A stretch of DNA of 64,000 bases from NCBI GenBank assembly GCA_017996625.1, contig JAGOGO010000002.1:1017-65016 (forward strand). Reading direction: 5' to 3'. Shown here piece by piece: positions 3,050 through 36,209 of the stretch. A model generated the notes under the pieces. The model saw only the letters and a program-made list of their open reading frames with translations. It made no database searches and was not told where the DNA came from. A program made the translations under genes and the position numbers. The stretch's first letter is position 1; each line of letters begins with the position of its first letter. The DNA comes from Deltaproteobacteria bacterium. Lineage in GTDB: Bacteria; Desulfobacterota; WTBG01; JAGOGO01.

Positions 3050-3390
3050 GACACAAGTCGTATGCAGATTGTCATTCCGGGCTTGACCCGGAATTCAGTA
3101 TGTGCCTGGATTCCCCCCAAGCGCACAATACTTTAACCGTCATTCCCGCGTAGGCGGGAATCCAGTATTGTGAACAGCGCACCACCACACTGCTAAAACC
3201 CGTTGTGCTGGCGATGAGTGCTCGGTAAAATGTCGTTCCTACCAGAAGCGCCGCTATGCTCTGGATTCCCGCCTTCGCGGGAATGACATCTCAGTGGATT
3301 GCCGCCTGCGCGGGTTGCGCTTCAGCTCTTTATCCACCGAACGAAGTGAGTCCCGCTCCGAGCGGGATTCAGCTCTTTATCCACTGAAGG
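3050..3390. repeat. cluster of MITE/REP-like palindromic repeats (family 1 hairpins plus family 2 module)
   Basis: Family 1 hairpin GTCATTCCCGCGTAGGCGGGAATCCAG at 3129-3155 and its inverse CTGGATTCCCGCCTTCGCGGGAATGAC at 3261-3287. Variant GTCATTCCGGGCTTGACCCGGAATTCAG at 3071-3098. Family 2 module gcgcttCAGCTCTTTATCCACcgaacgaagtgagTCCCGCTCCGAGCGGGAttCAGCTCTTTATCCACtgaagg at 3311-3390, with an internal direct repeat and hairpin. The same units recur at 12.1-12.9 kb, 16.9 kb and 35.9-36.2 kb. Confidence 0.85.
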
Positions 3391-3873
3391 AAGAGAATAA
3401 TGACATTTTGTTCGTTGATGTATGGCGCTCTGTATAAAAGCACTGACACAGAGGAAATGATAAAAAAGTAGACGACACCAATCGCCAAAGTCGGTATTTT
3501 CCTCGTGATTATTGCACTCTAGCATAGTCAAGAGGGATTTGCAAGGAACGGAAGGCTAAGAGCTTAACGTAATTTGTATTTGTGAGAAGTATGGAAAATC
3601 GTCGAGGGGTTCAGAAGGCCAACAGGCATCCCGAGGACACATGACAGTTATTTGCTTGGAGAAAAACAGAAGCGGAGTACAATGGGACCGGAAAGAACCC
3701 CTGCCACCTTCCCGCATCTTCTCCCCTTGACAGCAAAACGTAGTTGTCGTTATGCTTAAATTTTTCAGGCTATCTTCGTTGCTCAGGATCTATCCACGCA
3801 CCAATGGGTCGCCCGGGAGGAGAATGTACAGCGCGGTTTATCCCGGACTGACCCATTTTACTTAAGGGCTTCC

Positions 3874-6800
3874 ATGAACGATCATGCCAAAACGAAACAG
3901 CAGCTTATCGATGAACTGCAGCAGTTACGTCAGCAGGTGGCTGAGCTGAAGGCAGAAGAGCATCAGGAAGCAGTGCTCCGGTCGGACGCAAGAGTTCAGG
4001 CCGCAGCGTCAGCGGACGTTCAGGATTCTCTTAGGCTCAAGTGTGAAGCGCTCTTCGCCCAAGCGATCCGCAGCGCTCAAGCCAATATTTTCTGCCTGGA
4101 TATGGGTACTGGCGAATTCATAGCCTCAGCAGCCACTAAAGCTTTGCACCGCATCCCTGCGGATGCTTTCATTAATCAGGAGGCCGTCATAGCAACGATC
4201 CATCCCGAGGACCGCCCCCGAGTGGAAAAGGCATGGGAAGGCTGTATCGAGCGAGGCGATTGCTGCTTGACGGAATATCGAGTCGTGCAACCTGATGGAA
4301 ACGTGCGATGGATTGCATCACAGGCTCAGGTGTTTCCTGGTCCGCATGGACCGAAGTTCCTGGGAATGTGCCGGGACATCACCGAGCGCAAGCAGGCTGA
4401 AGAGCAGCTGCGTATGAGTGAGAACCGGCACCGGCTGCTGTTTGACGCAATGGCGGAGGGCTTTGTGCTGGCAGAAGCCATCGTGGATGAACACAGGCTG
4501 CCAGTGGACTTCCGGGTGCTTGAAGCTAATCCGGCTGCTGCAGAGTTGACGGGAATTTCGATTCAAGCAGCGATCGGGAAAACTGCCCGAGAGCTCATAC
4601 CCGGTATTGGCAAGGAGTGGATTAAGACCCTCGGAGAGACAGCTCTTAGCGGAGAAGCGACTACTTTCGAGCGCTACGCCCGATCATTGAACAAGTGGTT
4701 TCACGTCCTGGCATATGGCCTTGAAAGGGACACATTCGCCTGCTTCTTTGTCGATATCACCGAGCGCAAACAGATAGAGGATGCGCTGCGAAGCACCCGA
4801 GACACGTTGCAGACAGTGCTGGACACAGCCCCAGCCGGAATACTCGTGGCTGATCAGGACGGGAAGTTCACTCTCGCCAACGCGGTCGCTCTTGAAATAT
4901 TCGGCGGATCGCCGACGGGTAATGTCTACGGACCGCTGGGTAGTTACGAGGTATTCCACAGCGATGGTTCACCCGTGGTACCAGCGGAACTGCCTCTACC
5001 GCGTGCCCTGTACCAAGGCGAAATCACCCGCCAAGCTGAGCTTCTGATCAGGCGAAAGGATGGCAGTGAAGTCGTAGTCTTGGCCGCAGCTACACCCCTG
5101 CACGACTCCGAAGGCCGCATCCGCGGAGCGATTGCCGTGCTCCAAGACATCACCGAGCGCAAACATGCCGAAGAGGCATTGCGGCAGAGCGAGGAGCGGC
5201 TTTTCTTCGTTGTTGAGAACTCCGAGGATACCATCTTTATCCAGGATAAGGACCTGCGTTACCTCTGGGTATCAAAACCAACCTGGCCGTTTACGATGAA
5301 CGAAATCCTGGGCAAGACAGACTTTGACTTTGAAGGTCCCCAGGAGCAATTCCAGCGCATGGTGAAGATCAAACGCACCGTCTTGCATGAAAACAGCCCG
5401 GTCACTACGGAGCTTTCTCTCTCGCTTAAAGGGCGACCGCGCTTCTTTGGGGTAACCTACAAGCCCTGGTGTGACGCTGCGGGTCATGTGATCGGATTGG
5501 CAGGCTATGCCCGTGACATCACTGTGCGCAAGCAGGCCGACGCGGCCTTGCGGCAGAGTGAGGAGCGGTTGAAGCGGGCTGAGGCAATTGCCCATCTGGG
5601 CAGCTGGGAGCTCGATCTTGCGCACGATCACCTTTCGTGGTCCGATGAGGTGTACCGCATCTTCGGTATGCAGCCGCAGGAGTTTGGAGCGACGTATGAG
5701 GCATTTCTCGAAGCAGTGCACCCGGACGATCGCCAGGCAGTCGATGAAGCATACTCCGACTCGCTCCGGGATGGCTGTGACGGCTATGAGATCGAGCACC
5801 GGGTGGTGCGCAAGAAAAGCGGTGAGATACGCTTTGTTCACGAAAAATGCGAGCACGTACGGGATGAATCCGGCCGCATTATCCGCTCCTTCGGTATGGT
5901 GCACGACATCACCGAACGCAAGCAGGCGGAGGAGGCGCTCAGGCAGAGTAAGGAGCGGCTGCGCCTGGCATTGGATGCTGCTCACATGGGTACCTGGGAA
6001 AGGGACATTAGCAACGACAGTGCAATCTGGAATGATGAGGAGTTCCGGATTTTGGGCTATGAGCCGGGGGAAGTAAATTCCTGCTATCAGACCTGGGTCG
6101 CACGTATTCATCCGGAAGACTTGGCAGCGGTAGAAACCCAGATGCGCCGGAGCACAGAATCGTGCTCCGAGTTCACGGCCGAGTACCGGATGCTGTGGCC
6201 GGACGGTACGGTGCATTGGGGCGAGACCCGTGGGCGATTTGAAGTCGATGAGTTCGGCAAAGCCGTGCGCTCCTATGGCGTGTTGATCGATATTACAAAG
6301 CACAAACAGGCTGAGGAGGCGTTGCGGGAGAGCGAACAACGTTTCCGCGCTATTTACGAACTTGCTCCGCTGGGGATAGCTTTGGTTGATTCCCACACCG
6401 GCCGGTTCCTGCAGGTAAATCCCCGCTACGAGCAGATCCTGAGTCGCAGCCAAGCGGAGATTTTAAGTTTGAATTTTCAGGACATCACTCACCCTGATGA
6501 TCTTCCGAAAGACCTGGAAAAGATGCAGCTGCTGGGCCAGGGCAAGATCCGTTTCTTCAGGAGAGAGAAACGCTACCTTCTTCCTGATGGTTCTTATGTC
6601 TGGGTTAATCTCACGGTTGTGCCGATGTGGAAGGAGGGGGAGGTTGCGACGTGCCATATCGCCATGATCGAGGACATCACTGAGCGCAAGCGAGCGGAAG
6701 CAGAACTACGGCAAAGCGAATGGAAGTATCGGACTCTTTTTGAAACAATTGATCAAGGCGTTGTTTACCGCAATGCCGGCGGTGAGATCCTTAGTGCCAA

Positions 6801-7848
6801 TTTTGCCGCTGAACAAATCCTCGGTCTGTCACTTGAGGCAATGCAAAGGCACCTGAGTCCCGATTCTTATTGGAACGCTATCCTGACAGACGGAACAAAA
6901 ATCGTGCAAGACCAGCTTCCGCCCATGATCGCCTTGAAGAGCGGCAGGAAGATCGAGGATGAGATCATAGGCGTTTTCAACCCGAGAGAGCATGGTTACC
7001 GCTGGCTCATCGTTGACAGCATTCCCCAAATCTGGCCGGAGGAGAAGTCTCCTTCTGGCGTTTTTACCATATTCAGGGATATCACTGAGCTGAAAGAGGC
7101 AAAGAGGGAACTGCGTCGGCTGAATGAAACGCTGGAACGCCGGGTCAAGCAACGAACGGCGGAGCTAAAGAGATCACAGCAGCAGTTTCGGCAGCTCTCT
7201 AATGATTTGCTGCAGGCACAGGAAAACGAACGAAAGCGGATAGCCACCGAGATTCACGACAACGCCGGGCAGGTGCTGGCAGCAATCAAGTACCGGGTGG
7301 AATCAGCGTATTTGAAGCTTGAGAAAACCGGTGTTAGCGAAGCGCTGCAGCCGGTCAAAGATCTCATCCCCACCATCCAGGCCTGCATCAATGATATGCG
7401 GCGGCTGCAGATGGAGCTGCGGCCGAGTATACTGGATGATATGGGGGTGGCAACAGCGGTTGAATGGTTCTGCCGCGAGTTTCAGAAGACGTATCCATCC
7501 ATTTCCTTGAAACGAAGGCTGACGGTCAATGAATCCGAACTGTCCGCCTCGCTCAAGCTGGTGATCTTCCGAATCATACAGGAAGCGCTCAATAACGTGG
7601 GCAAGCACAGCGATGCCAGTTTAGTCCGTATCCTGCTCCAACAACGTGAAGAATCGGTAATGGTGAGGATCAAGGATAACGGCCGGGGGTTTGACGTGAA
7701 AGAGGCGCAAGAGATCAAAGCCTTTGGTCAGGGGTTAGGCCTCTCCAGCATGCAAGAGCGAGCGCATTATTCGGGTGGAACGCTGACCATCCAATCAGCT
7801 CCAGGTCAAGGTACGTGTATTGAAGCACGGTGGACGAAAAAAGAGTAG
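3874..7848 (+). CDS. multi-PAS/PAC sensor histidine kinase with HisKA_3 dimerisation domain and HATPase_c (NarX/LiaS-type)
   Basis: 1324 aa. N-terminal coiled coil, then about 7 PAS/PAC units separated by the repeated linker ITERKQAEE(A)LR(Q)SEER. C-terminus carries EIHDNAGQVLAAIKY (H-box of HisKA_3), then N, G1 (IKDNGRGFD) and G2 (GQGLGLSSMQERA) boxes. Confidence 0.85.
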   Translation: MNDHAKTKQQLIDELQQLRQQVAELKAEEHQEAVLRSDARVQAAASADVQDSLRLKCEALFAQAIRSAQANIFCLDMGTGEFIASAATKALHRIPADAFINQEAVIATIHPEDRPRVEKAWEGCIERGDCCLTEYRVVQPDGNVRWIASQAQVFPGPHGPKFLGMCRDITERKQAEEQLRMSENRHRLLFDAMAEGFVLAEAIVDEHRLPVDFRVLEANPAAAELTGISIQAAIGKTARELIPGIGKEWIKTLGETALSGEATTFERYARSLNKWFHVLAYGLERDTFACFFVDITERKQIEDALRSTRDTLQTVLDTAPAGILVADQDGKFTLANAVALEIFGGSPTGNVYGPLGSYEVFHSDGSPVVPAELPLPRALYQGEITRQAELLIRRKDGSEVVVLAAATPLHDSEGRIRGAIAVLQDITERKHAEEALRQSEERLFFVVENSEDTIFIQDKDLRYLWVSKPTWPFTMNEILGKTDFDFEGPQEQFQRMVKIKRTVLHENSPVTTELSLSLKGRPRFFGVTYKPWCDAAGHVIGLAGYARDITVRKQADAALRQSEERLKRAEAIAHLGSWELDLAHDHLSWSDEVYRIFGMQPQEFGATYEAFLEAVHPDDRQAVDEAYSDSLRDGCDGYEIEHRVVRKKSGEIRFVHEKCEHVRDESGRIIRSFGMVHDITERKQAEEALRQSKERLRLALDAAHMGTWERDISNDSAIWNDEEFRILGYEPGEVNSCYQTWVARIHPEDLAAVETQMRRSTESCSEFTAEYRMLWPDGTVHWGETRGRFEVDEFGKAVRSYGVLIDITKHKQAEEALRESEQRFRAIYELAPLGIALVDSHTGRFLQVNPRYEQILSRSQAEILSLNFQDITHPDDLPKDLEKMQLLGQGKIRFFRREKRYLLPDGSYVWVNLTVVPMWKEGEVATCHIAMIEDITERKRAEAELRQSEWKYRTLFETIDQGVVYRNAGGEILSANFAAEQILGLSLEAMQRHLSPDSYWNAILTDGTKIVQDQLPPMIALKSGRKIEDEIIGVFNPREHGYRWLIVDSIPQIWPEEKSPSGVFTIFRDITELKEAKRELRRLNETLERRVKQRTAELKRSQQQFRQLSNDLLQAQENERKRIATEIHDNAGQVLAAIKYRVESAYLKLEKTGVSEALQPVKDLIPTIQACINDMRRLQMELRPSILDDMGVATAVEWFCREFQKTYPSISLKRRLTVNESELSASLKLVIFRIIQEALNNVGKHSDASLVRILLQQREESVMVRIKDNGRGFDVKEAQEIKAFGQGLGLSSMQERAHYSGGTLTIQSAPGQGTCIEARWTKKE

Positions 7849-8342
7849 AAGTAGAACTCAAGGCCACCTGGGCTGAATCACTGGGGTCAGACCAAGATAA
7901 CGGTTTGATTGGTAAAGATATTTATTGAACTGGGGCACGTCTATGCTCCTGGGCATCTTCGTTCTTTTAGAGACCCATTTTTAGCGCAAAAGAGAGGCTC
8001 TGCGCCGATTTGGAGACTGCCTTCTTGCTTTTTTCCGTGCAAGCACACCACCTTAGCATGGTCTGACCCGAACAATTAATAATCGGATGCACAGACACCC
8101 TCACCTCACAGATCATTTCTCCTTTTGCCTAAGACAATGCCACTATTTTATTTGACTTTTTTACTGGGTTCTGCTAATGTCGTTTCGTTCACGGGACAAC
8201 ATACACAACGCGAAATCGATCACTGAATTCCCGGAGCCCTCCGGCCTGCCTTGCCGGAGCTGGCGTTTTTTCCGGTAAGAGAAGACTTGCGAGGCAGAAT
8301 TACCTGTACTCGGGTCATTTTGTTCATGGAAGGAGGGATGGT

Positions 8343-8954
8343 ATGAAACGGAAATTCTGCGCGGCTTTGATTTCACTTTTTGCGGTGATTGCTTATGCTT
8401 CCGGCGCCCAGTGCCTAAGTTTCACCCTGAGTGACTACGACATTGACTACCATGATAGTGACCCCGGCCTGGTGCTCTATACTCAAGACATTCTCGGCGT
8501 GCCGATTTCGTTCGACCTCGAACCCGGTGAATCGCTGACCATAGATCTTTTTGAGGTTGGAACGCTGGAAAATTCTATTAGTTTAGATGACTTCATCTCT
8601 TACCCTCTTTCGGTTAGCTTCGAGTTCTCTCTGCCCGATGTGTCCGGAACAGTAACCGGTTACTCCCACGGCAGAATCCTATGGCAAGACGGCGTCGTTG
8701 ATTGGGATAACGACTTCTCCGATCCGGCAGAGTTTACCTTTGGCGATACCGGCTTGTTCACAATCGGTCTCTCTGATGTTTCTTTTGACACCCCGGGATC
8801 GGCAATTGTTCAAGCTCAGTTAAATTACGTGCGGGCACCTACCTATGATCCAGTCCCCGGACCCGCTACGATGCTCCTCATGGGCTCCGGGTTTATCGGC
8901 TTAGCCGCACTCCGAAAGGGTGCTCACAGGGGCCGGACCAGACTGAGAGATTAA
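8343..8954 (+). CDS. secreted protein with variant PEP-CTERM sorting signal (VPGP..TM..Arg-rich tail)
   Basis: Signal peptide MKRKFCAALISLFAVIAYASGAQC. The C-terminus DPVPGPATMLLMGSGFIGLAALRKGAHRGRTRLRD has a P-x-P motif, a TM helix and a basic tail, typical of exosortase substrates. Confidence 0.45.
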   Translation: MKRKFCAALISLFAVIAYASGAQCLSFTLSDYDIDYHDSDPGLVLYTQDILGVPISFDLEPGESLTIDLFEVGTLENSISLDDFISYPLSVSFEFSLPDVSGTVTGYSHGRILWQDGVVDWDNDFSDPAEFTFGDTGLFTIGLSDVSFDTPGSAIVQAQLNYVRAPTYDPVPGPATMLLMGSGFIGLAALRKGAHRGRTRLRD

Positions 8955-8971
8955 TCTGGCAAAGTTTTCAT

Positions 8972-9565
8972 TTAAAGCTCACTTCTCGTCTCAAAGAATT
9001 CATCCCGGCCGTAGCCGATAATAGTACCGAGAGAAAGACTCCTTGCCACGTCTAAGTCTAATGACTTAAGAAGAAACAGCAGATCATGCGTCACGGCAAT
9101 GCAGTGCTGGTTGGTACGGATGATCCGATCGAGTTCTCCTTTGCCGAGTTGGATTGAAAGCCTTTCATATAAGAACAAAACGAGGTACTGCTGCAATGCT
9201 TGAGGAACAAGGGATTGACAGGCGTGGACCATTTGGTGAAGCAGTGCATTTCCCAGTTCTTTTTCACTTATGACGGAGCCGCTATTAATCTGGATTTCCC
9301 TCTTTTGTAGATCAAAGCGTGCGTGATACCGTTCCCTTGAACCGGGAACATAAAGCAGGAGGTACTCGTCCAGAAGCTCAGTGCCCGCATCGTCCCAGTC
9401 CACATGGAAGTCTTCAGGCGTCTGTGTTTCATACTTAAAGAACCTTTCCCATAGCTCCTTTACCTCGAAACGAAAGTCTTTGAAATAGATGGCTTCGAAC
9501 TGTTCCGCCAGAGAGCGTAACTTCGGCGAGTCTTCCACTTTGATCAATCTTTTTCGCTCATGCAC
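8972..9565 (-). CDS. hypothetical protein (co-directional with upstream response regulator)
   Basis: The ORF track gives 8972..9676, but that start overlaps the response regulator by 55 bp. A GTG at 9565 preceded by AGGAGAAAGGGG gives a 197 aa product (VHERKRLIKVEDSPKL...). No recognised family. Confidence 0.4.
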   Translation of the reverse strand: MHERKRLIKVEDSPKLRSLAEQFEAIYFKDFRFEVKELWERFFKYETQTPEDFHVDWDDAGTELLDEYLLLYVPGSRERYHARFDLQKREIQINSGSVISEKELGNALLHQMVHACQSLVPQALQQYLVLFLYERLSIQLGKGELDRIIRTNQHCIAVTHDLLFLLKSLDLDVARSLSLGTIIGYGRDEFFETRSEL

Positions 9566-9621
9566 TGTACAATTCCCCTTTCTCCTGAAATAACTTCCAC
9601 AGGTAATCGCCAGAAGGACTA

Positions 9622-10041
9622 TCAAAAAAGGCGACCGCTGGGCAAGTTGTCTTCCCGCAGCGGGCCAGGTCTCCACGAGTTCACATCCTTCATCAATCCG
9701 ACAATCTCTTCAATGGACTGGGGGCCTTTGAGCATAAAACTCATTGCTCCAACGTGCGCCGCAGCAATGAGCAATTCGAGTGCGATACAAGGACTGAGCA
9801 TGACAACATGGCTCTTCGGGTTCAGGTGCACGGCCTTATAGGTGAGCTCGAATCCTTCAGCTCCAAGCACGTCAAGATCCATAATTATCCACTGCGGCTG
9901 GTGCTCATGGATAATCTTCTGAGCTTGGATCCTGTCGTACGCCTGCTTGATGTGTATTGTTGGATCGCAAGATAGCAACGCCTCGATTAGGGCTCGCCGA
10001 AATGGCGCATCCGCTTCTATGAGCAGTGTTACGGTATTCAT
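9622..10041 (-). CDS. single-domain response regulator (CheY-like receiver)
   Basis: 139 aa with receiver-domain layout: acidic pocket, phospho-acceptor Asp in IIMDLDV, and conserved K/T region. Confidence 0.7.
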   Translation of the reverse strand: MNTVTLLIEADAPFRRALIEALLSCDPTIHIKQAYDRIQAQKIIHEHQPQWIIMDLDVLGAEGFELTYKAVHLNPKSHVVMLSPCIALELLIAAAHVGAMSFMLKGPQSIEEIVGLMKDVNSWRPGPLREDNLPSGRLF

Positions 10042-11239: not shown

Positions 11240-11394
11240 CTGCAGAGCGTTGGAAAATGCCCATCTGCTGCGTTATGCTTATTCCTCGTCACTGCGGCGT
11301 ACTACTCTGTACGCCTCATTCCTCGGATTTGCGCAAGCCTTGCATATGGCCATTTTTGAACACTCTGCCACAAGATGCTATTCTTAGAGAAATA

Positions 11395-12109: not shown

Positions 12110-12895
12110 CAAGGCGCCGAGGAGCGATCCCGCGCCACGCGGGCTGCGCTTCAGCTCTTTATCCCCCGCGAAGCGGGACGAAGCGGGACAGATCGTGCTT
12201 TGATGTTGATTCAGAGTGCAATCTTTTCCCTTTTCAAGCATAGCTGATCACAGTACACTAGTTGATAATTCAAGATTGATGGCATCGTAAAAAGCGCCAG
12301 TAAGCCGCGTGGCGGCAACCTATGAGCAACGAAGTGATGCCCACTTCGTTGGAAGTATCCGCTCTCGTCATTTTGTCATCCCCGCGTAGGCGGGGATCCA
12401 GGAGTTCTGCATGGTTATGGACTCCCGCCGGAGTCCATCCCCGCGTAGGCGGGGACGGGAGTGACGGCTTTTGGACTTTTTACGAGTCCATCAAGATTCA
12501 AGGTTCAAAATTCGAAGTACAGTGAAGAGTGAGGAGTGAAAAGTAAGAAGTACTAAGACAATGGCCGATTCGTGCCTATTCGTTCTTACTCCTAACTCCT
12601 CGTATGAAACTTGACGATAGTTCGTCATTCCTCACTTCGCTCGGTGGATAAAGAGCTGATGCGCAACTTGCGCGGGCGGGAATCCAGTATTGTGGACAGT
12701 AGGCACTAGTACTGAAGCCTCGCTTGCTGCCAAAGAGCTCCTTTTCGATTCTCTTGATAATGGAAGCGCTTCACTTCCTGGATTCCCGCCTGCGCGGGAA
12801 TGACAGTAAAGAGTTTCCGCTTCGATCAACCTGGGCCCGAAGGCGCCCAGAGGCTTTCGCTCACTCTTTACTCCTTACTGTTTCACCGTAAACTC
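12110..12895. repeat. ~0.8 kb intergenic region composed almost entirely of MITE/REP-like units (families 1, 2 and 3)
   Basis: Family 1 copies: 12375-12401 (GTCATCCCCGCGTAGGCGGGGATCCAG), 12437-12456, 12678-12700, inverse copy 12778-12804. Family 2: 12125-12190 and inverse 12627-12660 (cacttcgctcggtggataaagagctg). Family 3: 12829-12895 (caacctgggcccgaaggcgcccagaggctttcgctcactctttactccttactg). Also AG-rich gtgaagagtgaggagtgaaaagtaagaagtactaag at 12522-12557. Confidence 0.85.
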
Positions 12896-12912
12896 CTATC
12901 CCATTTGAGTCG

Positions 12913-16859: not shown

Positions 16860-16995
16860 TCGTGTTTCAGTATGAACTCGCAATCCCGCGCAACGCGGGC
16901 TGCACTCTAGCTCTATATCCCCGCCGAAGCTGGCAAGTTACTAACCGTCATTCCCGCGCAGGCGGGAATCCAGCAGGATGTAGGGTGCGCCGTGC
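16860..16995. repeat. MITE/REP cluster (family 2-like module plus family 1 hairpin plus terminal palindrome)
   Basis: caATCCCGCGCAACGCGGGctgcactctagctctatatccccgccgaagc at 16880-16930 is a degenerate copy of 12125-12175. GTCATTCCCGCGCAGGCGGGAATCCAG sits at 16947-16973. GTGCGCCGTGCGCAC palindrome at 16981-16995. Confidence 0.8.
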
Positions 16996-17735: not shown

Positions 17736-17760
17736 GGTGAACGGTCAACGGACAACGGTG
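17736..17760. repeat. family 4 repeat GGTGAACGGTCAACGGACAACGGTG (also at 36178-36209 and inverted at 35875-35898)
   Basis: Direct sequence identity. The upstream flank ccaatttcccattcaccatttctccatcctttc (17701-17735) resembles 37494-37528. Confidence 0.7.
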
Positions 17761-26208: not shown

Positions 26209-26369
26209 GCTCTCTGGCGTGGCGATGAGTAAATCAGTCTATCGCAGAGTGGTCAAAAAGGTGCAGATGCAAGGCGCACGCAGTTCCGAGGAATGAGGCG
26301 TACAATTTAGTACGCCGCAATGACGAAGAACGAGTGCAACACAGCAGATGCGCCTTTTTCACCGCTCTG

Positions 26370-27128
26370 CTACGTGCGCAGACGCCAGATGAGAAGCCCT
26401 ACACCCAGAGAAATAACGCCGAAGCTGAGACACTTCAGGATAATCTCGTAAGTTCGAATCAGACTTTTTTCCTGCGGTTCAGAACAGTTCCGCCGCCGTT
26501 TGAGTTGCTTATACGGTCGCGAGGTCTTGATTTCAGCCAGACTCAGAATGCCCATGGACACAGCCAGCATGAGCATCTCCAGACTTATCCGGTTTGTCTG
26601 CATCATAAAGCCCATTACTACCGGCAGCGATCCCCAGGAAAACGCAAACCATCCGTCCTTGTGAAACTTTCCAGAAAACCATTCCAGATTATAGGCAAAC
26701 ACAAAAAAGCCTTCCAGCACCGCAACAACCCAGAGGCGGGGAACAAACAAGACCATGTAGTAGATCAGAATGCAATAGGCAGATACAAGAGCACTGATGG
26801 CGAGCGTCCATAGTTGGCCCTTGGAAAACACTTCGCCCCAGGGCTTACTGATTTTACTTCCCAATGCATCCAGGGAGTGAGCAGCAATGCCCAGACCCAG
26901 GATATAGACGATCACTACAGCAACAATCCGGTCCCAAAAAACATGAGGGGCCAACACCGAGCCGATTATGGAAAAGGAGAGTACCATCCCGGTATAGGGC
27001 AAAAACAGCATTCCTACGCCGCACCGGAATCGCACCGAACCAAAAGAAGGAACAAACCATTCGGCCAACCGATCATCAGTTCCGCAAGCACCATTCAGGA
27101 GATTCTCTGTACTGTCTTGTCTCCACAT
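26370..27128 (-). CDS. polytopic integral membrane protein, family unknown
   Basis: 252 aa with about 7 predicted hydrophobic helices. Convergent with the methyltransferase. Confidence 0.4.
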   Translation of the reverse strand: MWRQDSTENLLNGACGTDDRLAEWFVPSFGSVRFRCGVGMLFLPYTGMVLSFSIIGSVLAPHVFWDRIVAVVIVYILGLGIAAHSLDALGSKISKPWGEVFSKGQLWTLAISALVSAYCILIYYMVLFVPRLWVVAVLEGFFVFAYNLEWFSGKFHKDGWFAFSWGSLPVVMGFMMQTNRISLEMLMLAVSMGILSLAEIKTSRPYKQLKRRRNCSEPQEKSLIRTYEIILKCLSFGVISLGVGLLIWRLRT

Positions 27129-28096: not shown

Positions 28097-28150
28097 TCCG
28101 CTGTACCTGTCGGCCGGAAATTGATCGTGTATACTGTCATGCAGCCATGT

Positions 28151-28309: not shown

Positions 28310-28573
28310 GATGCCTGCTCCCGATTTGATTCAGTGTGGTGATTCTCAAGCACCCTGCTACTGCGCTCGCGATTGTATAAAAAGAATATTTTATTATATA
28401 CATGCACCCATCAGAGCAGAATACGCTCTTTCACGTATTTCCTGAAAAGATGCACCGTATTCAGAAAGGCCAAACGAGCCAGGCAGCAATTGACAGATAC
28501 AAGCGCTTGACAATCCTTGTTGACTGAAGAAAAGGACACCACATAAGGATACTGACGGGAACAATTCCTGAGG

Positions 28574-29617: not shown

Positions 29618-30012
29618 CCCCCTTGTCGCACAATCCGCCCCCGTTTCCCTAGCAAGCTACGGCAGGAGCCGCCTGCAAACAGGGAACTGGAAGTTCAAGG
29701 TGGAACAGCAGGAGTACAGAGTAGGGAGTACTCAGACGATGGGTGCCTCGAGCCTATTCATCACCACTTCTCGTATGAAACTCGCATGCAGAATATCTGC
29801 TGGGTGAGCAGGAGATGCACCCTGCAGCTTCCTGAAGCGCTCTTGAGTCGTGAACTCCCCCGAACCCCTCTTTGGAAAAGAGGTAAGAAATGGAAGTCGA
29901 ATGTCACCAATGACTATGGGAGCCTCTCGTCAATAGCCTTCCCCCTCGTGAGCAAAGAGGGGGCAAGGGGGAGTTCGCTCTTACAATCAATGCGCTTTGT
30001 TTCTTTCCTCGA

Positions 30013-30120
30013 TCAACCTGGGACCGAAGGAGCCCAGAGGCTTGCGCTTACTCCTAACTTTTCACTTTTTACTTCTTACTATTCCACCGTGAACCTTGAA
30101 CCTGTAACCTTGAACAGCTG
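30013..30120. repeat. family 3 repeat (caacctgggaccgaaggagcccagagg... followed by ACTCCTAACT/TTACT-rich tail)
   Basis: gatcaacctgggaccgaaggagcccagaggcttgcgcttactcctaac... aligns with 12829-12890 (two substitutions in the hairpin region). The tail carries the tandem motif aaccttgaacctgtaaccttgaac. Confidence 0.75.
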
Positions 30121-30140
30121 AAGGCCTTTTCACCACCCGT

Positions 30141-31928
30141 TTAAAAGGCCTTGGGGGGCGATGAAGACAAGGCAAGCCGCAAGGACTCATCGCGGCCGTA
30201 AATGTCATTACGAAAATGAACTATCCCTTCACGTTCAGCCCATGCAGTCCAGTACAGAAGATGAACCGGCATGTCCTCCGGCAGGTCCACGATCCGCTCA
30301 ACATTTTTGTCCAGTGCTTCAACAAGCGCCTCTCGAGTCCACCGGGGGTCTTTCTGCAAGAGATACTCCGCCAATGCGAGCGGCTTTTCGATCCGAATAC
30401 ATCCGGAACTGAAAGCACGGCTGGACCTGTAAAAGAGATCTCTTGCCGGAGTATCATGCAGATATACGTTGTGCTGATTTGGGAACATGAACTTCATCCG
30501 CCCGAGAGCATTGAGGGGGCCAGGCTCCTGACGAAAACGGTACGCGAATCCCTCCGAGGTTACATCACACCAGTGAATTTCTCTTGGATCGAGCTCAATA
30601 GTTTCCTCTCCCCAACCAAGAAATACCTGAAAGTGCTGCTCCTGAAGATACCCCGGGTACTCACATTCCATAGGAACAATATCTTCCATGGCAACTATCT
30701 TGGGCACATGCCAGTATGGACAGAGTACCATATAGGTTATACGATCGCTGAATACCGGCGTCGGCCGGAAATTACGGCCGACGACCACGCGCATGGTCAT
30801 CACCGCCTCGCCCCCGTCGACCACCTGCAAATCGAAGTCGGCAATGTTGATAAGTATATAACGGTTCCCCAGATACTGAGGCAACCAGCGCCAGCGTTCG
30901 AGATTCAGAATCACCTGACGAATCCTTGACTCCACCGGAACATTGAGCGCCTCCAGGGTAGCCGGTCCGATTATACCGTCAACATCCAGCCCATGACGAT
31001 ACTGAAATGTTCGTACTGCCTCTTCCAGAATTTCGTCAAAAAAATCTTCTTGTTCATTCGTCTTACGGATGTCTCCGGAAACGATGAGACGATTACGCAA
31101 CGCTACGATCCGATCGCTGCATTCATTCTTGTGCAGCGTCGGTCCATCAGGCACCTGCGGCCAGCCGCCTTCCTGCGCGATGTGCCTGTACTGCTCAAGC
31201 GTCTTCCTAAGATACTGATATCCCGGATGGACAGGGAGGAGTGATTGCAGCGCTTGTTGTACGGTTCCGGTTTCGAGGGCCGTTTGCAGATGAGCAGGCA
31301 GATCCTTCTCGCGACGATGCACTTGCCACTCGGGATCAATGGTTTCCGGATTGACTCTGCCTGCGAGCAGGTGAGAGGCATAGGTCAGAAAAGCATCAGT
31401 GAGCAAAAGATCGAGTTCCACCATCATCTGCGGGTGAACAAGGTTGCCTGAAGACTGCACGTTTTCAACGTTTTTTCTCAGCTCCTGAATCTTGGCAAGA
31501 TGGTAGTCAGTCGGCTCGAGCCCCTCCTGAAAGGCAGCTTCAATCTCGGCAACAAGCGCCGGCACTGCCGTCGACAAGCCATGTGCGGTGCTCCATGCCG
31601 GCTGATAGGATCTTCGTTCATAAAAGAGCGGCAGCACTTCAGAAGAAAAGATACATTCAGTACCAACACAGATTTTCGGGGGCTTGCCCGCCGGCTCGAT
31701 CTGCCTGCGAAGAAGCTGAGCGGCGGTATCTTCAGCGTCTACAGTTGCTGGCACTTGGAGCATCACAGCACTGCAGACGAGAACGATAATAAGGAATAGT
31801 ATGGTGTATCCAGTCCCCCTCTGGGGGGACTGCTGTGATAGCAGCACTCTTCGAACCACTCTCTTCCCTCGCACTGAATCATGACCTGGAGCTGTGCGGC
31901 CTGCCGAATTCTGCTGATCATTCCGCAA
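30141..31928 (-). CDS. murein L,D-transpeptidase, YcbB/LdtD family (PG-binding domain plus YkuD catalytic domain)
   Basis: Peptidoglycan-binding repeat AVRTFQYRHGLDVDGIIGPATLEALN. YkuD active site HDTPARDLFYRSSRAFSSGCIRIE (His...Cys). Confidence 0.75.
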   Translation of the reverse strand: MRNDQQNSAGRTAPGHDSVRGKRVVRRVLLSQQSPQRGTGYTILFLIIVLVCSAVMLQVPATVDAEDTAAQLLRRQIEPAGKPPKICVGTECIFSSEVLPLFYERRSYQPAWSTAHGLSTAVPALVAEIEAAFQEGLEPTDYHLAKIQELRKNVENVQSSGNLVHPQMMVELDLLLTDAFLTYASHLLAGRVNPETIDPEWQVHRREKDLPAHLQTALETGTVQQALQSLLPVHPGYQYLRKTLEQYRHIAQEGGWPQVPDGPTLHKNECSDRIVALRNRLIVSGDIRKTNEQEDFFDEILEEAVRTFQYRHGLDVDGIIGPATLEALNVPVESRIRQVILNLERWRWLPQYLGNRYILINIADFDLQVVDGGEAVMTMRVVVGRNFRPTPVFSDRITYMVLCPYWHVPKIVAMEDIVPMECEYPGYLQEQHFQVFLGWGEETIELDPREIHWCDVTSEGFAYRFRQEPGPLNALGRMKFMFPNQHNVYLHDTPARDLFYRSSRAFSSGCIRIEKPLALAEYLLQKDPRWTREALVEALDKNVERIVDLPEDMPVHLLYWTAWAEREGIVHFRNDIYGRDESLRLALSSSPPKAF

Positions 31929-32577
31929 ACCACTTGTTCCCCTATCACATTCAATCGAACCATGGTTACTACATACTTAGCAGTGAATGGAACCACCTCA
32001 GTCTGCTTCACGTCCATGAATTCCGAAACAAACCGGCAAGGGGCAGGTACGCCTCTCCTTTACGGTTGTAACCGCGCTACCGGGGTCTAAGACAAAAACA
32101 TGCATCAGTAAGTTCTTGTCGGCAGTTTTTCCACCTAAGGCACCGGGCGGTCAGGCCGTGTTGACATTCGGCGACCATGAAAACGTAGCACGAATGAGAA
32201 GAAAAAGAAAAGCAAAAAGGAGAAGACAACCATTACAACCCATCGATAAAGAACACTAATTTTTATTTTCTCATTTTTTATAAATTATTTGTTAACGAGC
32301 CGGGCCACTCAGGATACCATCCGGCGTTGCTCATTATCCTCTAAGGTCTTCGGAAAGCATCCATAAAGAGGAAGCACTGTTCAAAGGTGCGACATTCAGG
32401 TTTTGAGACACCGATTGATCATCTGTTTTTTTGAGACAATATACCGCCGATTAACCGGGTCTAAGAACATCTTCAATCGTTGACAACTCTGCCAAGAGAC
32501 TTATTTTTTCACGCGGAGCACAAGAATCAGCGATCGTGTAAGAGAGGTAAAGGCACCAGCGTAAAGGATCATGAAAA

Positions 32578-32838
32578 ATGGGAAGGAAGAAAGCGATAAA
32601 GTCGAATGTTCTCGTTTGGTTGAGCATAGCGTGGGCAGCACTGATCATGATCGCAACGTTTCTCCCCGGTGATACGTTCCGATTTTCGAAAGCGATAACG
32701 TATCTTGTCTTGTCGTTGCCGCCTCTGATCGGTCTTGTCCTGATACTCTTTTCCCGGTCCTGCCCGCGCTGTGGACGATGGATGTCGTATTTCTGGAGAA
32801 AACGGCGCTGTGCGGTTTGCGGAACCGAGATTGGATAA
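32578..32838 (+). CDS. small membrane protein with C-terminal CxxC...CxxC zinc ribbon
   Basis: Two TM helices followed by CPRCGRW...CAVCG. Weak. Confidence 0.3.
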   Translation: MGRKKAIKSNVLVWLSIAWAALIMIATFLPGDTFRFSKAITYLVLSLPPLIGLVLILFSRSCPRCGRWMSYFWRKRRCAVCGTEIG

Positions 32839-32847
32839 GTGGATTGA

Positions 32848-35829
32848 TTAGAGCGTCTTTTCGCTTTCCGGCTTCAGTGACGTTATCTTTTTCACCCGTA
32901 TCGATATCGCCCCGAAAAGGTCTTCCACCACTCCGGTAAGCACCAGCGGCCGGGTGAAGCTGATCATCTGACAATACCTCTTGTAGGCTGCGGGGAAAAG
33001 CGTTGCTTCAAACGTAGCAGTCATATCTTCGAAGCTTACAAATTCCATCGGCTCACCGCTTTTCACAAAAACGCTTTTCGCCGCGACAGCCATACCTGCT
33101 ACCACAACGTTCTTTCCTACCTGCTCATGAAGTCTACATGCCGGAACGGGAGCGGGTTTGATCCGATCGATCTGATTACGGAAAAGCTGCAATGGATGAA
33201 AAGAAACCGGAAAGCCGAGTGCTTCAACCTCCTGTCGCTGTTTCACCTCTTCCGGAAGATCCCCGGTGGGAAACTCGGCCAGGTGTGCTTCCGAAAGCGC
33301 TCTGTGATCCTGGCCACTATGAGCGCGAATATACCAGGCCATTCCGATCCGGCCCAGTTTGCTGCTGAGCGAATCAAGGGCGCCGGCTTTGAGCAACAGC
33401 AGCGCATCCGGCTGCGTCGGCCGTACGCGCATCATAAAGTCGACAAAGCTCGTAAACTGCTGCTTCGCACGCTCTTCGAGGATACCTTCCCGGCAGAGCC
33501 ACGAAAGCCCTTTAATGGCAGACAATCCCACACGCAGCAGAGTTCCGCTGCCCGTATATCCATTATCACTTACAGCAACATCCGGAGAGAGTATCGTAAT
33601 TCCCATCCGGACAGCCTCGGAAATATACGCCCGAGGCGCATAAAAGCCTCCACCATTGCTCAGCACTGCGGCGATAAATTCACTTGGAAACCGGCTTTTC
33701 AGATACGCTGCCTTGAAGCTTACCAGAGCATAGCTGGCTGAATGAGGTTTGCAGAATGAATAACCGGAGAAGGAGCTAATCATTTCCCAAAGCGCATCAA
33801 TGACGGACCGTGAAACTCCTCGGCCAGAGGCTCCTCGATAGAACCGTTCTTTCTGATCCGAAACACGATTCCTGATTCGTCCCGTAACGATCCTGCGAAA
33901 CATATCCGCCTCTGCTTCGCTGAAGCCTGCAATCATCATCGCGATCCGGGCAATATCCTCCTGGTACACCATCACGCCAAATGTTTCCGCAAGAATCTCT
34001 TCTATAGCGGGATGAAGCGGCTTCCAGGCGCCCCCCTTAAGACGGCGCACATATTCGAGAATAAACCGGTTGGCAGCCGGCCGGATGATTGAGGAAAGTG
34101 CAATCAGGTGGTGGTAATCGCCCTGGTCTGCCATGCGTAAGAGCCGTCGCATGGCCGGAGACTCAACATAGAACACACCCATGGTTTGGCCGCTGCGAAT
34201 CAACTCCTGGGTTGCATGGTCATGCAACGGGTTGAACTGATCGTAGGAGATACTGATACCGTACTGGTTCTTGATCGCCTCCAGCGTATCCCGGATCACA
34301 GCCAACGTGCGGTTACCGAGCAGGTCCATTTTTACTAATCCGCGATCCTCAGCACCATCCTTGTCCCATTGAATCAAAGGAACACGCTTTGCCGAAACCT
34401 GTACCGGAACGTGACGTGCAAGTGCATCAGGCGTAACGACAATGCCGCCGCAGTGTGTTCCCAGGTGTCGGGGAACACCCTCCAGACGGCTAGCCCAGGC
34501 AAAAATTGAAGGCCACGGCTCGGGAAGCTCAAAGCCGGCAAACAGCGGATGTTCCTGTACCCGATGGACAATTTCGGTAGCCGGTGCATAGCTTGAAAGC
34601 CGGCGCGTTACTTTTCTGATCTCGTGGTCCGGCATCCCGAAGACTTTTGCTACTTCGCATACCGCTGCCCGGGAGCGAAAGCCGGTCACGGTGGCTACCG
34701 CAGCCACATGCTCTTCACCGAAACGTCTGCGCACATACGTAACCACCTGGTCGCGTTCATCCCACGGAAAGTCTACATCGATATCCGGAAGATCACTTCG
34801 ACCCTCGTTGAGGAAGCGGGAAAAGAGCAGATTGTGCTCGATCGGGTCTACATGAGTGATGCCCAGGCAGTAGCTCACCAGTGATGCGGCTGCCGACCCC
34901 CGACCACAGGTAATGGGAAACCTGCTGACGATATCAGCGACAATGAGAAAGTATCCGGCAAAGCCCTTAGCGCAGATCAGGTCAAGCTCCTGGTTCAGAC
35001 GGTCGATAGCCTTCTGACATGGACTTCCGTAGCGTTTTTTGAGGCCTTCGTGACAGTGCACACGTAACGCATCAGCGCTGCATATGCTTCCTTCCCATTC
35101 AGGAAATACTTCACCATCCGTCTCCCACGCTTGCTGAAGAGTCTCGGCGATCCGCACCGTGTTCTCAAGTGCTTCCGGAGCATAGGGAAAATGACGGCTC
35201 ATAGCCTCCGGGTCCTTGAGCCAGGCGTGAGGCAGTGCACATTCATCCGGAGAAATAAGATCGAGGGTGGTATTACGATTGATTGCCCGCAGCATCCGGT
35301 GCAGTTCCCGATCACCAGCATCGAGAAAATATACGGCACCCGTAGCAATTGCCGGAATGCCTAATCGTCGGGCTGCCTTGAACGTTGCCAGGCTGCCCGC
35401 GTCCGGCACCAGTTCGACAAACATGTCTTCGGCATCCTGCAAAGCACTAAGCAGCGACAGATCCGGTGAAAGCAGAACGCAGTTCGAAAATCCCTGTTTG
35501 AGTTCATCAAGGAGTGAAAAAGAACCGGTGTGATGATGCAGCTTCGTCAACAGGCGACACATACATTGATAGCCTTGGGCGTTTTTTGCCAGAAGGACCG
35601 CCCGGCTATCAGAAGTGCATACATGCGCTCCTACCAACGGCATGAGGTCATACTGCTTTGCCGCAGAAAGAAATTCCGGCAGACCGTATAATCCGTTGGT
35701 ATCAGTGAGCGCCAGCGCCTCATAGCCTAACTCCTTCGCCCGGCGGCAGAGAGCGTCCGGTGACGCGGTCCCGGCCATGAACGTGTAATAGGAGTGGACA
35801 TGGAGATGAATAAACCGTTGACCGTGCAT
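32848..35829 (-). CDS. dnaE2: error-prone DNA polymerase III alpha-type subunit (DnaE2/ImuC)
   Basis: 993 aa, shorter than replicative DnaE. PHP domain start FIHLHVHSYYTFMAG, then Pol3 alpha core and OB fold. Sits downstream of imuB and lexA. Confidence 0.8.
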   Translation of the reverse strand: MHGQRFIHLHVHSYYTFMAGTASPDALCRRAKELGYEALALTDTNGLYGLPEFLSAAKQYDLMPLVGAHVCTSDSRAVLLAKNAQGYQCMCRLLTKLHHHTGSFSLLDELKQGFSNCVLLSPDLSLLSALQDAEDMFVELVPDAGSLATFKAARRLGIPAIATGAVYFLDAGDRELHRMLRAINRNTTLDLISPDECALPHAWLKDPEAMSRHFPYAPEALENTVRIAETLQQAWETDGEVFPEWEGSICSADALRVHCHEGLKKRYGSPCQKAIDRLNQELDLICAKGFAGYFLIVADIVSRFPITCGRGSAAASLVSYCLGITHVDPIEHNLLFSRFLNEGRSDLPDIDVDFPWDERDQVVTYVRRRFGEEHVAAVATVTGFRSRAAVCEVAKVFGMPDHEIRKVTRRLSSYAPATEIVHRVQEHPLFAGFELPEPWPSIFAWASRLEGVPRHLGTHCGGIVVTPDALARHVPVQVSAKRVPLIQWDKDGAEDRGLVKMDLLGNRTLAVIRDTLEAIKNQYGISISYDQFNPLHDHATQELIRSGQTMGVFYVESPAMRRLLRMADQGDYHHLIALSSIIRPAANRFILEYVRRLKGGAWKPLHPAIEEILAETFGVMVYQEDIARIAMMIAGFSEAEADMFRRIVTGRIRNRVSDQKERFYRGASGRGVSRSVIDALWEMISSFSGYSFCKPHSASYALVSFKAAYLKSRFPSEFIAAVLSNGGGFYAPRAYISEAVRMGITILSPDVAVSDNGYTGSGTLLRVGLSAIKGLSWLCREGILEERAKQQFTSFVDFMMRVRPTQPDALLLLKAGALDSLSSKLGRIGMAWYIRAHSGQDHRALSEAHLAEFPTGDLPEEVKQRQEVEALGFPVSFHPLQLFRNQIDRIKPAPVPACRLHEQVGKNVVVAGMAVAAKSVFVKSGEPMEFVSFEDMTATFEATLFPAAYKRYCQMISFTRPLVLTGVVEDLFGAISIRVKKITSLKPESEKTL

Positions 35830-35874
35830 ATACTGCGCGTTTACTGTTATCCGTTTACGTGCTGCGCGTTAAAA

Positions 35875-36209
35875 GTTGACCGTTGACCGTTCACCGACTT
35901 AGGCGCAGTGCTGATGCTTTGGCCAAAAGGCGGTATACGTGATAGTCCGTCATGCCCGCGCAGGCGGGCATCCAGGATATACAGATACTTCTATGAGTAC
36001 CTCGCGTTCCTTGAAACAAGAAAGATGATCTTTTACAACTTCATTGCAAATTCTAAATGTGGTGAAGTCGCAAGAGCCCTATTCCTGAAAAGATTTAGCT
36101 TTCGTGCGCTGCTGAAAGCACTGGATGCCCGCCTTCGCGGGCATGACATGCTGGCTCTTGCTGATAGCACCCTTGTCGGTGAACGGTGAACGGACAACGG
36201 TGAACGCAG
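35875..36209. repeat. MITE-like element inserted between imuB and dnaE2: inverted pair of family 1 hairpins (35949-35975 and 36121-36147) flanked by family 4 GGTGAACGG repeats (35875-35898, 36178-36209)
   Basis: GTCATGCCCGCGCAGGCGGGCATCCAG and CTGGATGCCCGCCTTCGCGGGCATGAC are inverted copies. Relative to 3129-3155 the stem carries compensatory T>G and A>C changes that preserve pairing. The internal 93 aa ORF at 35908..36189 is probably not coding. Confidence 0.8.

Follow-up and report, generated by a model that had tools for sequence, protein, structure and literature searches.

The stretch of DNA analysed here, hereafter the window, comprises 64,000 nucleotides from an anaerobic-digester Thermodesulfobacteriota MAG and contains ten hairpin repeats, all of them intergenic and all confined to its first 36.2 kb. 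Seven are full copies of the pattern YGTCAT-N-CCCGCG-N-AGGCGGG-N-ATCCAG, two are variants and one has an expanded loop. A sequence-only reading had described a family of 27 bp hairpin repeats in this DNA, and such a family exists: the 27-mer has seven matches in the window as compared with 0.00 expected by chance, and all seven full copies fit the published pattern of Ssn-related motifs (SRM), HGTCWYN(0-2)YYVSBRHN(0-5)WNVSBRGN(0-2)RNCYNB, for which 0.38 chance matches are expected. Some of the positions given in that reading were slightly off; the copy placed at 3129 really lies at 3139.

The leftmost group of repeats starts with a variant on the forward strand (3070–3098; NTSvar or CGTC-2-like) that has a TGTC tag, the 8 bp stem ATTCCGGG, a 5 nt loop (CTTGA) and a TCAG tail. 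This copy, previously listed at 3071, is a genuine variant; it is spelled TGTCATTCCGGG-CTTGA-CCCGGAATTCAG, folds as DNA at -8.6 kcal/mol and scores 31 bits with the covariance model, and its loop type also occurs in unrelated genomes (L025, L033, L107 and L112). There follows a 149 bp HH dimer, a pair whose tags point outward, consisting of a full copy with a CGTC tag, the T-A stem variant and loop GTAG (3138–3165, forward strand, 48.6 bits), a conserved 95 nt spacer that recurs in other contexts (3166–3260), and a full copy with a TGTC tag and loop GAAG (3261–3288, reverse strand, 44.5 bits). Next to it on the reverse strand stand mosaic modules (3295–3404), comprising a degenerate NTS-like half and a pair of GGATAAAGAGCTGA ('X') modules at a distance of 47 nt; equivalent arrays in L196 and L172 have a 37 nt period. 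The OEP protein encoded at 890–2395 returned nothing on record when looked up.

A second group opens with an X-type module (12124–12177, reverse strand; a CCCGCG hairpin plus GGATAAAGAGCTGA) and a full copy with the C-G stem variant ATCCCCGC/GCGGGGAT (12374–12401, forward strand, 48.4 bits, -9.7 kcal/mol). The direct copy behind it (12433–12460, forward strand, GTCcATCCCCGCGTAGGCGGGGAC), reported earlier at 12437 as perfectly paired, is indeed a copy but a degraded one, with a GTCcAT head, a GGGGAC right arm and no CCAG tail, and it scores 31.2 bits against 44–49 for full copies. Similarly, the copy reported at 12678 is not an intact hairpin but the right half of one whose left half, CGTCATTCC, lies at 12623. 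This expanded-loop copy (12623–12687, forward strand) consists of CGTCATTCC, 44 nt of an X module and GCGGGAATCCAG, and retains an outer 5 bp stem in the fold; contig L133 carries the intact allele CGTCATTCCCGCGCAGGCGGGAATCCAG, in which the seven central bases CGCGCAG occupy the place of those 44 nt. Its HH partner is a full copy with a TGTC tag and loop GCAG (12778–12805, reverse strand, 47.8 bits).

A solitary full copy lies 3' of a fructose-6-phosphate aldolase gene (16946–16973, forward strand, 46.4 bits), preceded by a diverged left-hand module (16880–16945, forward strand) that also precedes the repeat in many copies from this lineage (cf. L196:6780–6845 and L172:220–285). The last group, in the imuB–dnaE2 spacer, is a second HH dimer formed by two full copies with the G-C stem variant, one spelled ATGCCCGC/GCGGGCAT (35948–35975, forward strand, 47.6 bits, -10.3 kcal/mol) and the other at 36121–36148 on the reverse strand. 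A heptad-periodic inverted repeat with GTTGACC/GTTCACC tracts and 33 nt arms (35866–36207) encloses this dimer. A spurious 91-aa ORF had been called across it.

As DNA, every full copy folds into an 8 bp stem closed by a 4 nt loop, with energies from -8.7 to -10.3 kcal/mol and z-scores of about -4 to -5. The stem begins with AT (A-T and T-A first pairs), the loop is GNAR, and the YGTC tag on the 5' side and the CCAG tail on the 3' side are unpaired in the fold and invariant in all full copies. The base preceding GTCAT is C or T throughout the window, and among 158 copies from elsewhere it is C in 99 and T in 53. Compensatory stem changes had been proposed and are present, with T-A, C-G and G-C at stem position 3 each perfectly compensated; in other genomes this free position is T-A in 120, C-G in 22, G-C in 9 and A-T in 3 copies, with 4 non-Watson-Crick (Watson-Crick in 154 of 158). 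Once copies from other genomes were added, the structure-preserving covariation extended to five of the six free stem pairs: among 41 distinct 27-mers, for whose retrieval only the flanks were used, the paired cells made up 93%, and none of 500 shuffles reached this combination of pairing and double changes. The unpaired GTC tag and the 3' C are conserved across phyla, and stability of the hairpin alone does not explain this conservation.

These features place the repeats in a very widespread family that has already been described, and are better not regarded as a new RNA or regulatory motif. The published Neisseria Transformation Sequence (NTS), CGTCATTCCCGCGMAVGCGGGAATCYRG, contains dRS3 (Chenal et al. 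2025, Nat Commun 16:2388; PMC11893778). When an NTS was defined as a sequence with at most one mismatch to CGTCATTCCCGCGMAVGCGGGAATCYRG, four of the seven full copies qualified, the solitary copy at 16946 with none and those at 3138, 3288 and 12805 with one each. The window copies agree with NTS/SRM elements in their 28 nt sequence and hairpin; tag and tail likewise give each unit an orientation, pairs have their tags outward, and copies cluster in intergenic mosaics. They differ in that the host is not Neisseria and the DNA uptake sequence is absent, no DUS of any dialect being present in the window; a Neisseria origin was rejected on this ground and because the proteins carry Thermodesulfobacteriota/Deltaproteobacteria MAG labels. 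Relative to the Neisseria consensus, a loop T and the C-G and G-C stem variants are commoner in the window copies. With the repetitive extragenic palindromes (REPs) of class CGTC-1 they have in common the CGTC/TGTC tag, an 8 bp stem starting AT, a 4 nt loop and a CCA tail, as well as mostly HH homodimers, conserved spacers, insertion in palindromes and no linked transposase. The survey of that class listed five phyla, and the clusters it noted came mainly from Wolbachia and Neisseria (Di Nocera et al. 2013, BMC Genomics 14:522; PMC3733652), whereas here large mosaics occur in a deltaproteobacterial-type lineage.

The enzyme known to act on this family is Ssn, a single-domain GIY-YIG nuclease (cd10448) of about 95 aa from Neisseria and Wolbachia. 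SsnA (94 aa) binds and cuts the NTS as single-stranded DNA and not as RNA or double-stranded DNA, and Ssn binds the hairpin only when it is single-stranded and in the forward orientation, reads the stem sequence together with the flanking C and GTC bases, and cleaves a few nucleotides 5' of the tag (PMC11893778). The ssn gene is typically bracketed by two tag-outward copies and is present in 81% of the genomes in which SRMs number more than 200; what has been demonstrated for Ssn is cutting, mobilisation being a hypothesis of the source paper (PMC11893778). In our scan of species genomes, the 27-mer pattern GTCATNCCCGCGNAGGCGGGNATCCAG was found at at least 120 loci in more than 10 phyla by record title, Neisseria among them, with the proviso that some taxon labels are those of MAG bins (e.g. 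Nanoarchaeota, Klebsiella) that are possibly mis-binned. The motif is adjoined at 12–31 bp by PF01541 GIY-YIG ORFs of about 95 aa in L019, L075, L110 and L114, and tag-outward NTS copies stand on both sides of the gene in L019, L075 and L114. L199, a further case found from the protein side, has an NTS upstream of its ssn-like gene and NTS-like copies downstream. As a query against 5.8 billion proteins Ssn gave about 8,000 matches, and NCBIfam held no specific model for these Ssn proteins.

We therefore consider it probable that the hairpins are members of the NTS/dRS3/SRM family of CGTC-1 class REPs, that an Ssn protein is their cognate enzyme and that the inverted pairs are non-autonomous dimers; as part of the same reading, the compensatory stem changes probably reflect selection for a single-stranded DNA hairpin recognized by an Ssn-like protein. 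Both complete pairs, 3138/3288 with its 95 nt spacer and 35948/36148 with a spacer of 145 nt unrelated to it, point their tags outward and have one stem variant within each pair; together with the pair formed by the expanded-loop copy they bear out the earlier description of inverted, MITE-like pairs. The 149 bp dimer folds into one long single-stranded DNA hairpin (-39.9 kcal/mol, z -7.1). Dispersal was observed as well: the 149 bp dimer occurs with the same 95 nt spacer in at least 14 distinct, non-overlapping contexts at 89–100% identity (mean about 93%), these being metagenome contigs that were chosen for carrying a neighbouring module and that may represent several related genomes. Of the features of a MITE, inverted ends of 27 bp and dispersal in 14 or more copies are present, and the near-identity of the copies suggests fairly recent spread. 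At 35948/36148 no duplicated target site can be seen (tcc vs atg), and the flanks of other copies are uninformative, being embedded in repeats. Such pairs may be NTS-ssn-NTS cassettes that lack ssn and now behave as non-autonomous MITE- or REPIN-like units, which would have spread in this Thermodesulfobacteriota lineage.

The co-occurrence with other modular repeat families that had been noted corresponds to mosaics, and hairpin units may have been shuffled with other modules into arrays resembling the Neisseria intergenic mosaic elements (NIMEs), in which RS units are bounded by dRS3. Both systems have intergenic modules of 40–150 bp split by a hairpin repeat and show strain-level differences at such arrays. 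The modules differ, those found here (GGATAAAGAGCTGA units, heptad tracts and the 95 nt spacer) being specific to the lineage and absent from the loci of other genomes (at least 120 loci scanned). The concern that the motif might simply be part of a longer conserved IS was justified in that several copies lie inside a longer lineage-specific composite repeat, but this repeat has no transposase and the 27-mer has unrelated flanks across phyla.

The imuB–dnaE2 spacer is an expanded intergenic site, being 385 bp long in the window, whereas it measures 3 bp in L207 and 79 bp in L205, whose ImuB is 75% identical. In L205 the heptad palindrome is present with no NTS dimer inside it, the arms being only about 36 nt apart, and the comparison suggests that the window has the occupied version of a site that is approximately empty in relatives. 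A bolder proposal is that Ssn and NTS constitute a GIY-YIG single-stranded DNA transposon, in which NTS-ssn-NTS would be autonomous and the 149 bp dimers would be MITEs that are still moving in this digester population, inserting by preference into the centres of palindromes already in place, such as the imuB–dnaE2 heptad repeat, and driving strain-level rearrangements; this is speculative and we hold it to be doubtful.

Searches for an ssn or GIY-YIG gene, or for the remains of one, were negative in the window, the adjoining contig ends and 410 kb of lineage contigs, defined as contigs sharing the lineage-specific module (about 0.45 Mb in all). A tblastn search with four Ssn proteins against the window, same-organism contigs and the lineage contigs returned nothing below E=0.07, so the dimer spacers are not recognizable ssn remnants, and GIY-YIG motif regexes matched none of the window's six-frame ORFs. 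The Ssn cluster P0115, an abundant one, was rejected as the cognate enzyme because it came from an activated-sludge organism with a GC of 0.67. This missing gene lends itself to the alternative that the repeats are orphan relics, fossil NTS/REP sequences that came, by inheritance or acquisition, with an ssn cassette since lost, that have no present partner and persist as recombination substrates and assembly-breaking repeats. Degraded or rearranged copies (12433–12460, 12623–12687 and 3295–3320) and the suggestion that families of the CGTC type may be dying out (PMC3733652) are in keeping with such decay, but 7 of the 10 copies have remained intact, their stems perfectly paired and their unpaired tag and tail conserved, the 149 bp elements look recently spread, and ssn is frequent where SRMs are abundant, as noted above. 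Neisseria has one ssnA per genome, so the missing gene is weak negative evidence, and we judge the relic explanation to be unlikely. We infer instead that a homologue of Ssn elsewhere in the host genome may act on the window copies, and that it or another enzyme may mobilize them.

Roles at the RNA level, as had been suggested in the form of attenuation or mRNA stabilization, are disfavoured. A transcribed hairpin or dimer stem could serve as a terminator, attenuator, mRNA stabilizer or RNase III site, for example by uncoupling imuB from dnaE2: the second dimer lies within the imuB–dnaE2 operon and would be transcribed, the stem would form in RNA too, and the dimer could give a 27 bp duplex. 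Against this, no NTS copy in the window scored as an intrinsic terminator, the CCAG tail standing where a T run would be needed; copies stand in either orientation, some of them in divergent promoter regions; and Rfam at the gathering threshold detected only two tRNAs in the window. The conserved unpaired tag and 3' C, and the binding of SsnA to single-stranded DNA and not to the RNA form (PMC11893778), also argue against such roles, which we regard as improbable.

The window copies also coincide with sites where the assemblies of the population diverge. Versions from different contigs part precisely at copies, one point lying at about 12670 and another at about 3113, possibly as assembly chimeras across a 150–400 bp repeat; six contigs (L001–L006) are 99.99–100% identical to the window over 26–47 kb, with no polymorphism at the second dimer, and L134 differs only at 7.0–8.5 kb, outside the repeats. 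Divergence at the copies is in keeping with their serving a site-specific recombinase as attachment sites or targets, and dRS3 is described in the literature as the target of the Piv/IS110-type phage recombinase of Neisseria filamentous prophages. Such a function could coexist with the NTS/Ssn reading, but a Pfam scan of the ORFs flanking the repeat regions detected no IS110/Piv-type gene or filamentous prophage near the copies, and we give it little credence.

The REP-like nature of the repeats was recognized correctly, and they share with REPIN/RAYT and IS200/IS605 systems a single-stranded DNA hairpin, a small nuclease, a gene bracketed by repeats and inverted doublets as non-autonomous units, the differences being a HUH/Y1 as opposed to a GIY-YIG enzyme and a GTAG as opposed to a CGTC tag, and Ssn being documented as a cutting and not as a transposing enzyme. 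Mobilization of the hairpins as REPINs through a domesticated transposase of the Y1 (HUH) type, the RAYT partner proposed earlier, is nevertheless largely refuted and scarcely credible, since the Y1_Tnp gene that lies about 2 kb beyond the window encodes an ordinary TnpA of the IS200 type with its own hairpins (CCCTCGCC..GGCGAAG and CCCTCGAC..GTCGAGGG) and no NTS flanks, the tag is not the GTAG cleaved by RAYTs, genes for Y1 transposases were specifically shown to lack flanking REPs of the CGTC class (PMC3733652), and the gene bracketed by repeats in other genomes is a GIY-YIG gene.

In annotation, these hairpins are best masked or labelled as NTS/SRM (CGTC-1 REP) units. What this analysis adds is that uncultured lineages, in more than 10 phyla by record title, share the 27-mer of Neisseria exactly, and that tag-outward dimers share the geometry of the NTS-ssn-NTS cassette and look like gene-less derivatives of it. 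The repeats break, and possibly mis-join, metagenome assemblies and give rise to spurious small ORFs. Finally, the many near-identical dimers of this digester lineage, together with an occupied and an approximately empty site, provide material for asking whether Ssn elements move.

Searching the window for GTCATTCCCGCGYAGGCGGGAATCCAG with up to three mismatches gave seven sites, at 3139(+), 3261(-), 12375(+), 12778(-), 16947(+), 35949(+) and 36121(-), as against none in shuffled sequences. The sequence-only reading had placed the first of these at 3129, a slip for 3139, and had listed a copy at 12678 that is the right half only of an expanded-loop copy; the left half, CGTCATTCC, lies at 12623, and the central bases, CGCGCAG in the intact allele, are replaced by 44 nt from another repeat module. 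An unfiltered run of a covariance model trained on the window copies added only two weaker sites, a variant with a 5-nt loop at 3066-3102 (TGTCATTCCGGG-CTTGA-CCCGGAATTCAG) and a degraded copy at 12429-12464, and neither search found a convincing copy past 36.2 kb. As single-stranded DNA all full copies form a hairpin of 8 bp with a 4-nt loop, leaving four bases unpaired at the 5' end and four at the 3' end; folding energies range from -8.7 to -10.3 kcal/mol (z -4.2 to -4.9). A T-A, C-G or G-C pair occupies stem position 3 in these copies, compensated in every case.

By their sequence, the window repeats can be firmly assigned to a family that has already been described, under the names dRS3, NTS (Neisseria Transformation Sequence), SRM (Ssn-related motif) and CGTC-1 REP. 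CGTC-tagged REPs were defined by Di Nocera et al. 2013 (PMC3733652) as units that carry CGTC or TGTC at one terminus, a CCA tail, an 8-9-bp stem starting with A-T and T-A pairs and a loop of 4-5 nt, that occur predominantly as 'HH' dimers (tags on the outside, spacer conserved) and that have no linked transposase; the CGTC-1 units of Neisseria are dRS3. This element was later lengthened to the 28-nt NTS, CGTCATTCCCGCGMAVGCGGGAATCYRG (Chenal et al. 2025, PMC11893778), which the copy at 16946 matches exactly and three other window copies match with one mismatch. The SRM pattern is found in all seven full copies, where 0.38 matches would be expected.

The compensatory stem substitutions proposed from the sequence are borne out, by stem position 3 in the window and by 41 distinct 27-mers from elsewhere. 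A scan for GTCATNCCCGCGNAGGCGGGNATCCAG in one genome per species gave at least 120 loci which, by record title, come from alpha-, beta- and gammaproteobacteria (including Neisseria and Rickettsia), Desulfobacterales, Syntrophaceae, Bdellovibrionales, Planctomycetota, Chloroflexota, Nitrospirales and Gemmatimonadota, and also from Zixibacteria, Cloacimonadota, Patescibacteria and one Nanoarchaeota bin; labels of MAGs among these titles call for some caution. The two free stem positions of this pattern are complementary in 154 of 158 copies (T-A 120, C-G 22, G-C 9, A-T 3). A second set, found in these loci by matching only the flanks (GTCAT-N16-ATYYAG) and leaving out the pattern-selected copies, contains compensated variants elsewhere in the stem, such as TCCCAC/GTGGGA, CCCGGC/GCCGGG, TCCTGC/GCAGGA and TTCCGC/GCGGAA, together with the CTTGA-loop subtype seen at 3070 in the window. 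Across the 41 distinct 27-mers, 93% of cells are paired and double changes occur in five of six unconstrained pairs; none of 500 shuffles attains the observed values, and slid registers fall to 16-51% paired. The claim of structural covariation is therefore sound, and covariation is a property of the whole NTS family.

The working form of the repeat is most likely a single-stranded DNA hairpin read by an Ssn-type nuclease, a reading suggested by experiments in other bacteria and by the conservation here of the unpaired bases that SsnA needs. SRMs border ssnA, the gene of a 94-aa single-domain GIY-YIG protein, in distant bacteria; SsnA binds forward-strand ssDNA only, with no binding to RNA, dsDNA or the reverse strand, and its cut falls a few nucleotides upstream of the motif (PMC11893778). 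Binding depends most on the C after the palindrome and cutting on the three bases preceding it, while the loop is not required and extensions can stand in for it (PMC11893778). Among the loci of other genomes, the motif is separated by 12-31 bp from an ORF of ~95 aa in MAGs of Methylotenera (L019), a gammaproteobacterium (L075), Devosia (L110) and a betaproteobacterium (L114); the three of these ORFs that were scanned match PF01541 (GIY-YIG), and in L019, L075 and L114 tag-outward NTS copies flank the gene on both sides. In L199, an unrelated sludge organism with GC-rich DNA, ssn is preceded by an NTS and followed by NTS-like copies. Beside this gene, at L199:3320-3460, we also observed an NTS with its loop expanded to 29 nt (CGTCATTCCCGC-29 nt-GCGGGAATCCAG), which resembles the window copy at 12623-12687 and agrees with the published finding that SsnA tolerates loop extensions. 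No ssn gene was found in the lineage of the window, whether in the window, in the contig ends beyond it or in 410 kb of related contigs. That Ssn mobilizes the dimers is a speculation.

RNA-level roles such as transcription attenuation or mRNA stabilization, raised by the sequence-only reading, are not favoured because no NTS copy in the window has a T tail, copies occur in both orientations and no Rfam family matches them. The same reading suggested a RAYT partner; the nearby Y1_Tnp gene (L127:1436-1869, ~2.1-2.5 kb beyond the window end and adjoining a catalase gene; PF01797, E 6.6e-31) instead encodes an IS200-type TnpA that has its own flanking hairpins without NTS, and is unrelated to the repeats. 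A Neisseria host, suggested by the likeness to dRS3, was rejected: no dialect of the DNA uptake sequence occurs in the window. By exact protein look-ups, the window belongs with anaerobic-digester metagenome contigs and MAGs labelled Thermodesulfobacteriota or Deltaproteobacteria bacterium.

Every NTS copy in the window is intergenic. The settings are the interval between an outer-membrane efflux gene and a PAS histidine kinase gene, that between the divergently transcribed deaminase and DUF1848 genes, the 3' side of a fructose-6-phosphate aldolase gene, and the imuB-dnaE2 interval, part of a lexA-imuB-dnaE2 mutagenesis cassette at 32848-38126. A 91-aa ORF in public gene calls (35914-36189; L001:11193-11468), without a Pfam match, spans the NTS dimer there and is most likely a spurious product of the repeat, whose units translate to, for example, VIPAQAGIQ. 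A long defence-type island at 43864-63999, with McrBC, a reverse transcriptase together with an STM3845-family gene, and DUF499, DUF1156 and DUF87 genes, contains no NTS copy.

A neighbouring module, TCRGTGGATAAAGAGCTGA, was not found in the 120 loci of other genomes. Used as a handle for a metagenome scan, it recovered 56 contigs in 39 non-overlapping clusters, mostly from the same digester series (GC ~0.52), which carry 64 NTS copies. A 149-bp unit consisting of an NTS, a 92-95-nt spacer and an inverted NTS recurs in at least 14 distinct contexts with pairwise identities of 89-100% (mean 93%); window positions 3139-3287 are one such dimer, which folds as one long hairpin (-39.9 kcal/mol, z -7.1). 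Around it lie a left module that ends in ...CACAAYACTTTAAC, tandem X modules with a period of 37 or 47 nt and, at the far end, a second CGTCATTCC head. These ~400-bp mosaics of NTS dimer and modules resemble the NIMEs of Neisseria. The lineage-specific X module has a core, GGATAAAGAGCTGA, beside a small CCCGCG-type hairpin, and its arrays adjoin NTS dimers (window 3295-3404, 12124-12177 and 12631-12670; L196:7040-7170; L172:440-540); none of the 120 loci from other genomes contains it. One X unit, 3347-3371, scores as terminator-like.

The G-C stem variant occurs in the dimer at 35948-36148, whose 145-nt spacer is unrelated to that of the 149-bp unit. This dimer lies in an imuB-dnaE2 spacer of 385 bp, compared with 79 bp in a relative with 75% ImuB identity (L205) and 3 bp in another with 53% (L207). 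L205 retains a heptad-periodic inverted repeat (GTTCACCGTTGACC... / ...GATGAACGATGAAC) with arms ~36 nt apart; in the window 276 nt separate these arms, and the NTS dimer lies midway. CGTC-1 dimers inside palindromes have been described in another species (Di Nocera et al., PMC3733652). Heptad-periodic tracts of the GGTGAAC GGTCAAC GGACAAC and GTGAGGA GTGAAAA GTAAGAA types also border repeat mosaics and gene ends (17736-17758, 35866-35898, 36175-36207, 12520-12600 and 12860-12912), and one pair in the imuB-dnaE2 spacer makes up an inverted repeat of 33 nt, found in the relative as well (L205:3080-3160).

Two alternative contig versions from other digester samples diverge at NTS copies, each agreeing with the window to one side of the element and having other genes beyond it. 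L133 has the window sequence from 12670 (L133:6568) onward, with quite different genes upstream and an intact NTS in place of the expanded-loop copy, while L158 departs just upstream of the 3138 copy (window ~3113; L158:2531). These divergences may reflect strain-level rearrangements or assembly joins across repeats. A further contig, L134, represents an otherwise near-identical strain with 102 differences from the window, all but ~6 of which cluster within 7000-8500, a local hot spot of divergence at the 3' end of an 8-PAS histidine kinase gene and in the sequence immediately after it.

Other repeats were also observed in the window. A 168-nt repeat is present in three direct intergenic copies, 92-96% identical (40764-40931, 43018-43185 and 49321-49488), between genes of a defence-type island, among them McrBC, a large helicase-like gene and hypothetical genes. 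A 127-nt inverted repeat pair (80%; 11242-11368 and 26244-26370), one arm of which directly adjoins tRNA-Ser(CGA), contains a GGCGTAC-N6-GTACGCC hairpin preceded by CGTCAYTGC. A near-perfect 55-nt palindrome with 27-nt arms (96%) occupies 56941-56995, between the STM3845-family and DUF499 genes.

The hairpins of the window are real, were well observed and belong to a known repeat family, which here occurs in a new host and in a lineage-specific mosaic.
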